The notes beneath the pieces are model-generated. The model was not told the DNA's origin. It searched no databases and saw nothing but the letters and a program-made list of their open reading frames with translations. 64,000 bases of DNA from Flaccisagitta enflata (taxonomy: Eukaryota): positions 23,932,001-23,996,000 of the forward strand of contig OZ231126.1 of assembly GCA_965153355.1 (NCBI GenBank), read 5' to 3'. Position 1 is the first letter of the stretch. Each line of letters begins with the position of its first letter. This document shows positions 35,842-50,253 of this stretch, in pieces. The position numbers and the translations under genes were made by a program.

Positions 35842-36319
35842 TCAAGCTGGTTTCATCCACATGTAAGCCTCCGAGAGAATATACCAATCAGATTCACCAG
35901 GGCGACCTTCCCTGTTGAGCCCTATTGAAGGATTACGTTGTTGTGGACACGTCAAACAAATAAAGGCAGCATCCGGTCCCAGCCACCATCCCACACCCCT
36001 TTCAGCAGCATTTCCCCAGTTCACGCCACTGATTTTTCTATCCCACGTTTGAAAAGCCTGCTTATTACTATGTTTCCACACTGGCAACTTCCCAAAATTT
36101 TTTTCGTTGATCAGTTCGCCAAGTTGATATGGAAGTTCCGCAATTTCTGGCCCGACGGTGAAGTTGTCCCATTCAGCTTCGCCAAAAGTCCCCGCCTTTA
36201 AATCCGCAATCTTATCACCCCAATCATCATGAATTCGATCGTATTTCACGCGGACTTTCAACGTCCATCTCCCCTTCGATGATATTCTATGCATCTTCTC
36301 TAGACCGAGCCAAAAAAAT
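35842..36319 (-). CDS. Terminal exon of fibrinogen-related-domain (FReD/FREP-like) gene
   Basis: Acceptor ttatcaaacAG; reads FFWLGLEKMHRIS...GEAEWDNFTVGPE...FQTWDR...GVGWW...EAYMWMKPA*, matching the FReD motifs FWLGLEKIH, AEYDNFxVGPE, FSTxDR, GWW, MxIRP. Confidence 0.88.
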
Positions 36320-36849
36320 CTGTTTGATAAGAAAGCAGGCCAAAAGAAATGGATTTAATTCATTTCGCCGAAATACAACAAAAGATCTTTATCGAAATTT
36401 GATGAATGCTAGAAGAATGATTTCTCCCTACAGTAGAGAGTGTGAGACTACGTATGAAAAGAAAACAGGCAGGCACTACTCCATTAAAATTGCGTACTAC
36501 AATTAGAAGCTAATAATTGTTGTTGTCATTACCCAATATCCATATCCTAAGGGGTTAGCAAACCGGTAGCTAGGCCATATACGTCCTACTTCACTTCTTT
36601 TGTCAGTGTTTTTGTGTGTGTGTGTGTGTGTGTGTGTGTGTGTGTGTGTGTGTGTGTGTGTGTGTGTGTGTGTGTGTGTGTGTGTGTGTGTGTGTGTGTG
36701 TGTGTGTGTGTGTGTGTGTGTGTGTGTGTGTGTGTGTGTGTGTGTGTGTGTGTGTGTGTGTGTGTGTGTGTGTGTGTGTGTGTGTGTGTGTGTGTGCTCG
36801 TAATGACTCTTTAATCAAGAACAATGTAGCTTTTATACTTCCTTGTGGC

Positions 36850-37421
36850 CAGGCCCGGCCAGAGGGGGGGGTCACCCCCCTCTAAGAAGGGGGGCCCAGG
36901 AAGGCCCCTGAAATGAGAGAGAAATTAAAAAAAAGAAAAAGAAAAGAAAAAAAAGAAGAAAGGAGAAAAAAAAAAGAAGAAGAAAAGAAAAAGAAATGAA
37001 AAAAAAAAAGAAAAGAAAAGAAAATAGAAAAAGAAATAGAGAAAAAAAAGTTTATTTAGTCTATTCAGACAGCCCAGTTAAACAAATTTTGATATGATCA
37101 GCTTTTACCGTTGGACTTTATTAACGCCGGCTCAATGCTACAATTCCATGTCTCATTTTAAAGATACAGTGGATAGTGTTTTTAAATGAGCCCCTAATTC
37201 GACTATTATAAATGTGACAAACAATTCTAATGGGTAGTTATTGTGATCTGGATGAAATTGATGGTATTGAAAGTAAATAAAATATAAAATTAAAGGTATT
37301 ATGTAGAATCTACATAACATGTAGATAAAGATATTTTAGAGATAATGTATGAAGAGGGGGGTTAGGGGGGCCCAGGCAAGGGGGTCAAAGGGGGGGCCCG
37401 CCATTTTTCTGACCGGGCCTG
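36850..37421. mobile_element. hAT-like MITE in the FReD gene intron
   Basis: TIRs CAGGCCCGGCCAGA / TCTGACCGGGCCTG; perfect 8-bp TSD CTTGTGGC (36842-36849, 37422-37429). Confidence 0.9.
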
Positions 37422-37946
37422 CTTGTGGCTATCTCTATCTCTTTTAAAGGGTGTGTTTGTGTGTGTGTGTGTGTGTGTGTGTGTGTGTGTGTGTGTGTGT
37501 GTGTGTGTGTGTGTGTGTGTGTGTGTGTGTGTGTGTGTGTGTGTGTGTGTGTGTGTGTGTGTGTGTGTGTGTGTGTGTGTGTGTGTGTGTGTGTGTGTGT
37601 GTGTGTGTGTGTGTGTGTCTGTGTGTCTGTGTGTCTGTGTGCTCAATATGACTCTTTAATCAAGAACAATGAAGCTTTTTTACTTCCTTGTGGCTATCTC
37701 TTTTGGAGGTTTCAGAAAAAAAATGCCGTTCTTAAAAAGTCAACAAGGCCGGATACGACGGCTACCATAGTCGCGTGCAGGTGGGCAGGGGTAGTGATGG
37801 AGAAGGTCACTGGGGCGTTTGGGCAGCAGCAGTAAGCACAAAAAGCTTTAAAACACCGAAAAAGTAAAAGGGGGACCAACCGACCGACCGACCGACATAG
37901 CGGGATGTTGAGTCGTGTACACGCAATTAAAAAGTGTAATCCTCAC

Positions 37947-38079
37947 CTATCACTAGGAGTTCCGAATCCGTCCTTGAATTCGATCCATCGTTGTTTACTT
38001 TCAATATCGCCATCTTTGCCCCATACGTGTTTTAACGTTGTTATTGACTGGGGTATTCTTCCTGGTGTCGAGGTGGTCC
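37947..38079 (-). CDS. Internal exon of the FReD gene
   Basis: AG...GT(GAGG) boundaries; encodes TTSTPGRIPQSITTLKHVWGKDGDIESKQRWIEFKDGFGTPSD (WxEYKxGFG motif); phase-2 end joins the 36319 exon in frame; acceptor position less certain. Confidence 0.8.
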
Positions 38080-38494
38080 CTGTTCAAGCAAAACTCCGCT
38101 GGCTGTGGTAAAGATTTATACATTGTGCTTTTAAAATAGTTATTTATTAAAGTTACTATATCCGTGGATTTTTTTGCTATCTTTAAAATAGAAAAAGAAT
38201 AAACCCATTTTCAATGCAGATTTTACTAAGTTATATTGACTAATTTGGGATTCCATATTGTTTATTCTTGCCAAATTTCCTTCCATTTGATGGGTTTCAC
38301 TCTATACTTTTGTATTAAGATTTGAAATAACATTTTTTTTGTCACCGCTACATATAGTACTAAGTTCGTAATGGTGGCTCCGAAATTGAAAATTCTATTT
38401 CCGCATTGAACCATATTGTGCGATTTATCAATTGAAAAGAAATTTGCAAGGATTAACAATATTTCTTCAACTAGGCGGATATTAAGTCGGGATG

Positions 38495-48200: not shown

Positions 48201-49642
48201 CCAAAGTGGCCCTAGATTACATCTAAATGTACATTTTTTTACTTGTTTATGCTATCAACAACTATGAAAAGAAATATAAGGAAAAAGTGTTGAAATTGGC
48301 TAAAATTGATTTTAAAAATTCCTGACCGCGTAGAAGTTTCTCTAAAGTGGCTAAATCATCTCTAACATCAATTCTGAGCATAATTAAGCCCTTTTTTGAA
48401 CCTCAAATAACCTATTTAGTCTGTATTGGATGAATTTTAACAGCCAAAACTGCTTAATAGAATCACATATTTCACACTGTTTAGGCTCAAAATCCTCAAA
48501 AATCTGTATTTGACCCAACAAATTGTTATTTTATTGCATCAGCAATGGCCCTCCAATGAAGATCCACAAAAAAAATCAACTCAATAACTCAAACCCTTTG
48601 CCCTTCAAGGAAAAAACACATGTACCCAAATCTGGTCTCTGCTCGCTTCCTAACATCCTTATAAGAAGCAACCCTGTACTTAGTTAACTTTGTTAGGTCA
48701 TTATCTGCTAATGGAGAATAGTTTTTGAGGAAAATCAGTGCTTATTTGAAAGATCTTTTCGAGCACTTTCATCTGAAAAAAAGAGCTAACTACTATCTCT
48801 CTCCGATAAAAAGTTATTGGCTCTCAAAGATGACACCTTCTGGAAGCCTCCGATTTTCAAGATTGTCAAAAAATGGCTATAATGGGCCTATTTCAAGCCC
48901 TAAAAATACCTTAAAGCATTTAGTTTTTGGCCCAAATTTGATTTTTTATCACACGAGAGAATTAGAAATAGCTAATTCCATTGATAAATAAGAAAAAAAT
49001 CAAGAAATTCATATTTTGATTAATTTTCCCTCTAATAAGACTGTTAGGAATAGGCCCGGCTGTGGGCGGCGACCAACGGCAGATTATGGCACTTTCTCAG
49101 GAGCCTTGCTATTTTGTTTTCTGAACCAAAACTGGTACAGAGACCCCCAAAAGGCCAGGAAATGGTTTGATTACCAGAAAAAAACCAAAGTGGCCCTAGA
49201 TTACATCTAAATGTACATTTTTTTACTTGTTTATGCTATCAACAACTATGAAAAGAAATATAAGGAAAAAGTGTTGAAATTGGCTAAAATTGATTTTAAA
49301 AATTCCTGACCGCGTAGAAGTTTCTCTAAAGTGGCTAAATCATCTCTAACATCAATTCTGAGCATAATTAAGCCCTTTTTTGAACCTCAAATAACCTATT
49401 TAGTCTGTATTGGATGAATTTTAACAGCCAAAACTGCTTAATAGAATCACATATTTCACACTGTTTAGGCTCAAAATCCTCAAAAATCTGTATTTGACCC
49501 AACAAATTGTTATTTTATTGCATCAGCAATGGCCCTCCAATGAAGATCCACAAAAAAAATCAACTCAATAACTCAAACCCTTTGCCCTTCAAGGAAAAAA
49601 CACATGTACCCAAATCTGGTCTCTGCTCGCTTCCTAACATCC
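39218..49642. mobile_element. Composite DNA-transposon tandem array: 11 x ~604-bp long direct repeat plus 10 x ~374-380-bp spacer (KolobokP-like architecture, non-autonomous)
   Basis: Repeat starts at 39218, 40197, 41175, 42159, 43143, 44127, 45104, 46088, 47072, 48055, 49039; each repeat runs GACTGTTAGGAA...TTCCTAACATCC; TGTA at 39214-39217 and 49643-49646. Confidence 0.85.
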
Positions 49643-49660
49643 TGTAAGTTCATCAATAAC

Positions 49661-49843
49661 CTGATCCCTGCATGATCTTCTTTTTTATTTCCTCGAGACG
49701 TTCTCCCGTCCTCGCTTCCGTTTCATTCATTCGATCTTCCAGTTGATTCAAACGTTCTTGAAGTCCATCAAAACGTTCCTTCATCTGACTGTTGGTCTCG
49801 TTCAACCGAATCTCCATGGATCCAAACCGATCTTCAAGTTGTC
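49661..49843 (-). CDS. Coiled-coil exon of the FReD gene
   Basis: (CT)n-AG acceptor; GQLEDRFGSMEIRLNETNSQMKERFDGLQERLNQLEDRMNETEARTGERLEEIK heptad pattern; phase 1-1 if the donor is CAG|GTTATT, which joins the 38079 exon in frame; donor uncertain. Confidence 0.72.
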
Positions 49844-50045
49844 CTGAGAGAGAGAGAGAGAGAGAGAGAGAGAGAGAGAGAGAGAGAGAGAGAGAGAGAG
49901 AGAGAGAGAGAGAGAGAGAGAGAGAGTGACAGCTCGTAAACAAGCTCCTCCGCGTATACGTGTACGTGCGCGTGTACGTGTGTGCGTACCTCAGGACGTA
50001 TGCGTGTGTAAATGAATAAAAGGGACTCGTACCATGGTGCGCTAC

Positions 50046-50253
50046 CTATATGTGCTTCCACGCGGTCAAAGTGCTTTGTCACGGTCTCAGTAAAATTGGC
50101 GAATTTCCTTTCAAACTTGGCTGTCCATTCGTTAAGATCCACTTGTGCCGGGAAAATGCTTTGCACGACTGCAAACGACTGACCACCAAGGTCCCGCTTC
50201 GAGCGTCCATCCACGACGTTGTCTGCATGGATTTTTTGGTGGATTGATTTGAT
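50046..50253 (-). CDS. Upstream exon of the FReD gene (5' boundary unknown)
   Basis: ...DGRSKRDLGGQSFAVVQSIFPAQVDLNEWTAKFERKFANFTETVTKHFDRVEAHI; RSKR furin-like site; donor ATAG|GTAGCG joins the next exon in frame; in-frame TGA at 50254-50256 just upstream. Confidence 0.6.

Follow-up and report, generated by a model that had tools for sequence, protein, structure and literature searches.

A tandem array with inverted-repeat ends in intron 4 of a predicted coiled-coil and fibrinogen-related gene of Flaccisagitta enflata

Results

The stretch of DNA analysed here, called the window, comprises 64,000 nucleotides of Flaccisagitta enflata (assembly GCA_965153355.1, contig OZ231126.1, positions 23,932,001 to 23,996,000 of the forward strand) and is of eukaryotic type, with microsatellites, spliced genes, and a reverse-transcriptase open reading frame (ORF). 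Between 51225 and 35842 on the minus strand, we recognized one six-exon gene for a protein of 364 amino acids, and a tandem array of 10.6 units of ~984 bp lies wholly in intron 4 of this gene. We regard the array as young and as derived from a transposon with inverted ends, and we give this reading of gene and array a probability of roughly 0.8. An earlier note made from the letters of this DNA had described part of the gene and had offered two models for the exon beside the array.

Structure of the six-exon gene

A tblastn search of the window with the 381-residue protein P0001 gave six collinear matches with the order kept, with E values ranging from 0.043 for an 11-residue piece of exon 1 to 6e-60 for exon 6. 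Because the matches fall in all six exons and in order, the exon set is not due to chance. The exon borders were read from the sequence around these matches and are listed in Table 1. Joining the six exons with a script that worked on the window sequence gave a coding sequence (CDS) of 1095 nt, which is in frame and consists of 364 codons with a single terminal stop. All five introns are of the GT-AG type with all ten splice dinucleotides intact, and the lengths of introns 1 to 5 are 416, 463, 202, 11,581, and 1,627 nt, respectively. No premature stop, frameshift, or lost splice site was found in the 1095-nt CDS and the five introns of the window copy. Intron 4 extends from 49660 to 38080, and the array fills 90% of it.

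On the minus strand, the open frames upstream of the array (49.66-50.25 kb) code for a heptad-rich helix and those downstream of it (35.84-38.08 kb) for the fibrinogen-related domain. The collinear matches to P0001 place the coiled coil and the fibrinogen-related domain in one gene, as the earlier note had supposed. The four exons that it described correspond to exons 3 to 6; their coordinates were right, and the script joined them in frame through the donor CAG/GTTATT at 49660 (a slash marks a border throughout). The extent given to the gene was too short, since the P0001 matches also cover exon 1, with the ATG and the signal peptide, and exon 2, and put the acceptor of exon 3 at 50222. A TGA at 50254-50256, which had been read as a hint of pseudogenisation, is present in the sequence and falls within intron 2, where it precedes the exon 3 acceptor by 32 nt; it therefore has no bearing on pseudogenisation. 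With the gene model corrected to six exons, the suspected signals of decay, namely this upstream TGA and the idea of a frameshift, are artefacts of the missing upstream exon.

Two further observations concern the borders of the exons. A perfect (GA)40.5 repeat at 49846-49926 (Tandem Repeats Finder), which reads (CT)n on the gene strand, takes up 81 nt of intron 3 (202 nt in total) and abuts the acceptor of exon 4, where it is in effect the polypyrimidine tract. At the other end of the gene, the stop TGA (35842-35827 region) faces a lysine in P0001, which continues for six residues (...KPVKPQLDF), and the C-termini differ slightly.

Table 1. Positions in the window of the exons, the array, and the parts of intron 4.
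Feature	Position	Strand	Description
Exon 1	51225-51179	-	ATG at 51225-51223; hydrophobic N-terminus MRAFALIFVLISFYH...; donor TAG/gtaata; first 16 residues of P0036 are the same apart from 1 change
Exon 2	50762-50686	-	77 nt; acceptor tttgaag/A; donor AAAAAG/gtttgc
Exon 3	50222-50046	-	177 nt; acceptor ccatgcag/AC; donor ATATAG/gtagcg; the long helix begins here
Exon 4	49843-49661	-	183 nt; coiled coil; acceptor ctctcag/GACAAC; end ...ATG CAG GGA TCA G/gttattg, weak donor
Unique bases of intron 4 between the donor GT and the array	49660-49644	-	17 nt
Tandem array	39217-49643	+	10,427 bp; units of 977-984 bp, 98.8-100% alike (blastn, gapless comparison of units)
Left outer end of the array (inverted-repeat arm)	39217-39229	+	AGACTGTTAGGAA, preceded by ...ctgt
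Right outer end of the array	49631-49643	-	AGGATGTTAGGAA on the minus strand; 11/13 match to the left arm
Rest of intron 4 past the array	39216-38080	-	1,137 nt with short tandem repeats and fragments of dispersed repeats
Exon 5	38079-37947	-	133 nt; acceptor gaacag/GGACCA; donor TGATAG/gtgagg; linker GTTSTPG... and first strand of the fibrinogen-related domain
Exon 6	36319-35842	-	478 nt including TGA at 35844-35842; acceptor caaacag/ATTTTT; FFWLGLEKMH... to MWMKPA and the stop

Junction of exons 4 and 5

The weak donor of exon 4 joins ...ATG CAG GGA TCA G to GG ACC ACC..., which gives the protein ...KIMQGSGTTSTPG. The same junction reads ...KIQQGSGTTSTPG in P0001, ...KLKQGSGTTSTPG in P0036, and ...ILQRPGTSSTPG in P0037, so that in each of these expressed relatives ...QGS (QRP in P0037) leads directly to GT(T/S)STPG.

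Four sequencing runs (metatranscriptome contigs X2 and X3, DNA X4, and polyA RNA X8) were placed on 49350-49845. One contig of X2 (1081 nt; 1 of 2,587,707) and one of X3 (553 nt; 1 of 1,070,099) aligned to 49660-49845 without gaps and with 6 deviating letters. Both ended there in a loose end at 49660, the 30 letters of which are the reverse complement of GACCACCTCGACACCAGGAAGAATACCCCA, i.e. the start of exon 5; the RNA evidence for the junction consists of these loose-end letters of contigs. Since no insertion or deletion is listed for the two contigs, the run of six A at 49686-49681 stands. Two changes are listed for them on the plus strand, one from C to A at 49785 and one from A to C at 49725; on the gene strand, CAG thereby becomes CAT (Q>H) and AAT becomes AAG (N>K). 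These are the residues of P0036 (NSHMKE, RMKETE), and the contigs are therefore a P0036-type copy, ~97% identical in exon 4, which may be an allele, a paralogue, or the gene of a sister species. In run X2, half of the sampled words of exon 6 were present.

The three relatives and the two contigs, which pass from 49661 into exon 5, agree that exon 4 ends at the weak donor at 49660, the first of the two models of the earlier note. Splicing from 49661 to 38079 with removal of the whole of intron 4 is seen in the ~97% identical copy; it is expected of the window copy as well, because the donor core CAG/GTTATT and the next 11 bases are native and the array is wholly intronic.

Structure of the array

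A blastn comparison with a reference unit resolved the array into ten full units and one end unit of 606 bp, and a blastn search of the whole window with the unit found no copy outside the array. The claim that the array inflates the intron by ~10 kb holds, with 10.4 kb of array in intron 4. Its position close to the donor and inside the intron was likewise seen correctly, and only the distance changes: the array begins 17 nt into the intron and not 14 nt, since the gapless comparison ends it at 49643. The discrepancy is due to a CTTA look-alike. On the plus strand the right border reads TTCCTAACATCCT/gtaagt at 49643.

The outer ends of the array form an inverted repeat with 11 of 13 positions matched, a score that random pairs of 13-mers from the array reached in 13 of 200,000 trials. 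A degenerate motif for these ends occurs 22 times in the array and once, with one mismatch, at 19726; 0.4 occurrences would be expected by chance. Both arms are found in every unit. Because the inverted ends recur in this way, each unit consists of an element and a spacer, and the array is composed of 11 segments of ~607 bp with inverted ends and 10 spacers of ~377 bp. The ends of the spacer (39824-40195 and equivalents) are themselves roughly inverted, TATAAGAAGCAA ... TTCCCTCTAATA, at 9 of 12 positions, so the array could also be two short elements that alternate.

The array contains no ORF longer than 89 aa, and no Pfam family was found in 7 ORFs; the Rfam search of 35000-52000 at the gathering level gave 0 matches. 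The motifs AGGTRAGT, GGTAAG, and GTAAGT are absent from the gene strand of the array. Variants occur at about two dozen columns and are distributed among the units as a mosaic: units 10 and 11 share four private changes, and units 1, 2, and 6 share a 6-bp deletion. This mosaic of shared variants, as read from the unit sequences, fits unequal exchange or gene conversion.

Abundance of the array in genomic DNA

In regard to the DNA run X4, which is a second sample under the same organism label, 200 of 20,612,068 contigs matched, and all of them lay on the array part (17 of 30 bins). The summed word depth reached 176,249 and was highest in the two full bins nearest the array end (49605-49638). 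Six X4 contigs departed from the window at 49642/49643 with continuations that differ from one another (agreement 0.56). These loose ends could mark a transposon terminus, but their first 12 letters resemble the start of the spacer, and the contigs may be variant units of the array.

Predicted protein and its relatives

From its sequence, the predicted product is apparently a secreted protein with a signal-like N-terminus, a long coiled coil, and a fibrinogen-related domain that lacks the usual A subdomain. When proteins of 278-2000 aa were searched with exon 6, one of 472 candidates proved to be a relative, namely P0001, which comes from a 1300-nt Logan contig. In an all-against-all search of 1.84 billion representatives, 35 proteins were found at E ≤ 0.001, with P0001 again the best; exon 6 and P0001 are 64-67% identical. 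P0036 (345 aa, from a 1347-nt JGI contig) is a member of the cluster of P0002, a 73-aa fragment. The only named match was distant, namely P0011 from the sea star Patiria miniata, which is a multi-domain protein of the canonical type, and the close relatives are unnamed.

On the Pfam profile PF00147 (Fibrinogen_C, gathering cut-off 22 bits), the exons were scored singly; exon 6 reached 21.5 bits (E 2.3e-4), and exon 5 gave no match. The relatives P0001, P0003, and P0006 lie above the cut-off with 44.3, 82.2, and 95.9 bits, respectively. Eight non-canonical relatives were scanned; the match starts at profile positions 38-58 of 221 in seven of them and at position 15 in P0025.

The AlphaFold model of P0001, built from an alignment of 24 sequences, has a mean predicted local distance difference test (pLDDT) value of 76.6 and consists of a helix (67-152), a disordered linker, and a beta-rich domain. 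The pLDDT is ~90 or more over most of 200-310 and falls below 50 at 156-171, where the helix leads over to the first strand. Foldseek comparison of this model with the PDB gave 151 matches at E ≤ 0.001, including ficolins, fibrinogen gamma, tenascin, and tachylectin 5A; the best was L-ficolin (4r9t_B, E 2.4e-11, template modelling score 0.67 by target length, 204 columns). The fold of the B and P subdomains is thus predicted for the relative P0001, the protein that was modelled.

A fibrinogen-related domain has an N-terminal A subdomain with a pair of cysteines and a P subdomain with a second pair and an Asp-rich calcium site, and in ficolins a collagen-like Gly-X-Y region precedes the domain. 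Exons 4 and 5 of the window contain no cysteine and therefore no A-subdomain pair. The cysteine of the (N/G/D)CA motif, which P0003 (RGCATNDG), P0006 (SNCAESSG), P0007, and P0025 retain, is lost in the clade of the window protein (GNAAERG), so that the P-subdomain pair is also missing. The Asp-rich stretch is degenerate in the window protein (TWDRKISG versus TKDRDND(K) in P0006), and the ICLTC motif is kept. No Gly-X-Y run was found in the window protein and its relatives.

P0036 is the closest relative along the gene. Its identity to the window protein is 14/15 residues in exon 1, 24/26 in exon 2, 59/59 in exon 3, 55/61 in exon 4, and 43/44 aligned residues in exon 5. After ...NAAERGV (near GVGWWLG) the frame of P0036 shifts and ends in an early stop. 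Compared with ...NAAERGVGWWLGPDAAFICLTCPQQ in the window (35960-36010), P0036 reads ...NAAERGVAGTGCCLYLFDVSTTT, which fits a short deletion with a shifted frame and an early stop. P0036 is either a real truncated copy or the product of a contig error.

Other features of the window

A 472-aa open frame on the plus strand at 6722-8137, with a match of 92 bits to RVT_1, is probably a retroelement and lies ~28 kb from the gene. In intron 5 there are two long dinucleotide runs, (TG)92 at 36613-36796 and (GT)95 at 37451-37641, together with an A-rich tract of 123 nt at 36927-37050, and (TGT)171 and (TG)192 occur upstream of the gene at 52916-53989. Pieces of a GGTCGG-rich dispersed repeat, 79-86% alike, pair 39017-39079 with 35472-35534 and 38990-39062 with 12253-12320; such pieces are found repeatedly, in intron 4 and the 3' flank as well as in other parts of the window.

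Discussion

The outer ends of the array carry the terminal inverted repeats (11/13) that are expected of an array derived from a MITE (miniature inverted-repeat transposable element), and these repeats together with the high abundance in X4 suggest that the array is derived from a transposon. The array may have arisen when a MITE-like segment of ~607 bp was amplified head to tail together with ~377 bp of adjoining DNA. The block could then have been mobilised through its outermost inverted ends, or it could have grown after insertion by unequal exchange; the mosaic of unit variants would fit ongoing exchange. We see in the array an intron inflated in an ordinary way rather than an exon that was broken.

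Several observations weigh against the reading of an intact gene with a transposon-derived array in its intron. In regard to the array, the gene strand carries one AATAAA per unit, 11 in total, and premature polyadenylation is therefore possible. Inside the units, the complementarity of the ends extends to 25 nt at 80%, and simple transposition through 13-nt ends does not explain an internal inverted repeat of 25 nt. The flank repeats amount to 2 bp, GT ... GT outside the array and TA ... TA at the inner junctions, and are too short to count; no convincing target-site duplication of 3, 4, or 8 bp was found at the array ends. In regard to the gene, the X2 and X3 contigs differ from the window at 6 of 186 bases and are not this copy, and P0036 and the window also differ by indels of 10, 2, and 2 aa. 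The window exon 5 (...SITTLKHVW) is without 10 residues that are present in P0001 (...TTTPAPTAEAILLLKHVW), P0036 (...KTTPAPPAEVTLLLKHVW), and P0037, and the missing residues include the start of the strand ILLLKHV. The window exon 6 is without the TV of YQLTVGEL, which P0001, P0002, P0036, and P0037 have (P0002 covers only this site and not the deletion in exon 5). Finally, the organism's own polyA RNA run X8 gave 0 matches among 12,162,974 reads; about 6% of the run was read, and the result is no test of expression.

The gene copy in the window may be a recently disabled allele or paralogue, with an open frame and a protein that no longer folds or a gene that is no longer expressed; we lean against this explanation and still give it considerable weight. 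The two in-frame deletions are private to the window copy, at sites that are kept in all close relatives covering them. In the model of P0001, ILLLKHV is the first strand of the domain (176-182) and the turn TVG links strands 275-277 and 281-285, so that one deletion strikes the first strand and the other removes two of the three residues of the turn. The 6 base differences in exon 4 from the expressed copy equal the 6 residue differences, and all of them would then be replacements; with ~22% of the sites silent, such a pattern is compatible with neutrality or diversifying change and does not suggest strong constraint or strong purifying selection. The zero count in X8 points weakly in the same direction, and decay may be common in the clade, since even P0036, the closest expressed copy, is cut short by a shifted frame. 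However, the 1095-nt frame has neither a stop nor a frameshift and the ten splice dinucleotides are intact, although at ~3% divergence an open frame would be weak evidence of function or constraint. Two private in-frame deletions are not disabling by definition, and in-frame indels and an excess of replacements are also expected of fast-evolving recognition proteins. Under this explanation, the array would either be tolerated since the gene was already dispensable or would itself silence the gene.

The remaining alternatives concern the array and its borders. The earlier note had also proposed that exon 4 once continued through ...RSCRDQVIDELTA to a donor at 39210, on the far side of the array, that the array split this exon, and that a change of one nucleotide in the A-run broke the frame. 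The arithmetic of this proposal is correct, and both the six-A run and GCA/GTACGT at 39210 exist in the sequence. The Cys-bearing segment that it requires was, however, not found in P0001, P0036, or P0037, which pass the junction without it, and the X2 and X3 contigs run over the A-run with 0 gaps and leave the genome at 49660/49661. RSCRD, which had been likened to the N-terminal Cys motif of a fibrinogen-related domain, has no counterpart in these three relatives, and given where the Fibrinogen_C matches of the relatives begin, no A-subdomain Cys motif is expected. On these grounds we rejected the frameshift and split exon, which we hold to be scarcely credible. An error of assembly, in which the copy number or the placement of the array is wrong because an abundant repeat was collapsed or misjoined, is very unlikely. 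The extreme abundance of the family in X4 and units that are up to 100% identical do favour misassembly, but both junctions are clean, lie at mirrored positions of the inverted repeat, and have unique intron flanks, and the units carry an ordered mosaic of variants and are not identical. It is improbable, though less so, that the array is a mobile cassette, in which sub-arrays of element and spacer would be cut out by way of the outermost inverted ends and insert again as one block, one of which would have landed here, 17 nt from the weak donor of a fast-evolving gene of recognition type. If it were so, kilobase-scale blocks of satellite would be seeded inside genes, and the array could be a presence/absence allele that alters splicing or, through its 11 AATAAA, polyadenylation, in a gene caught while being silenced.

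The architecture of the predicted protein, with a signal peptide, a long helix, and then a C-terminal fibrinogen-related fold, is shared with angiopoietin-like proteins and fibrinogen gamma, and the recognition domains of ficolins and tachylectin 5A are among the best structural matches of P0001. Unlike these proteins, the window family would have no A subdomain, and the first structured element after the helix would be the strand ILLLKHV; the window protein also differs from ficolins in having no collagen-like region. It belongs to a small clade of predicted secreted coiled-coil proteins with a fibrinogen-like domain without an A subdomain, which so far are represented only by unnamed contigs of marine transcripts.

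For the most part, the array is of known kinds, and nothing here is unexpected for a repeat-rich animal genome. Among 68 TCAST-like elements of Tribolium, 29 are located within introns, and terminal inverted repeats and target-site duplications occur in some (PMC3411249). The present locus likewise has an abundant repeat arranged in tandem within a protein-coding gene's intron, and the ends of its array show hallmarks of a DNA transposon; the array here differs in being long and near-homogeneous and in having inverted ends in every unit. Dimers of hobo and other transposable elements expand into tandem arrays in Drosophila (PMC5932611), and the Xstir and miDNA4 MITEs of Xenopus are covered in a review of the routes from MITE to satellite (PMC12628747). 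The building block in these systems, as in the window, is a non-coding element with inverted repeats, and copy number changes through unequal exchange. When tandems form by double insertion, their elements abut, whereas those of the window are kept apart by a constant spacer of ~377 bp; in MITEs of the miDNA4 type, the repeats are internal and the inverted repeats lie at the ends only, whereas here both arms occur in every unit. The recurrence of inverted ends in each unit with a constant spacer is the one unusual point of the array, and its inverted-repeat ends make it a concrete and testable case of transposon-derived satellites that enter genes.

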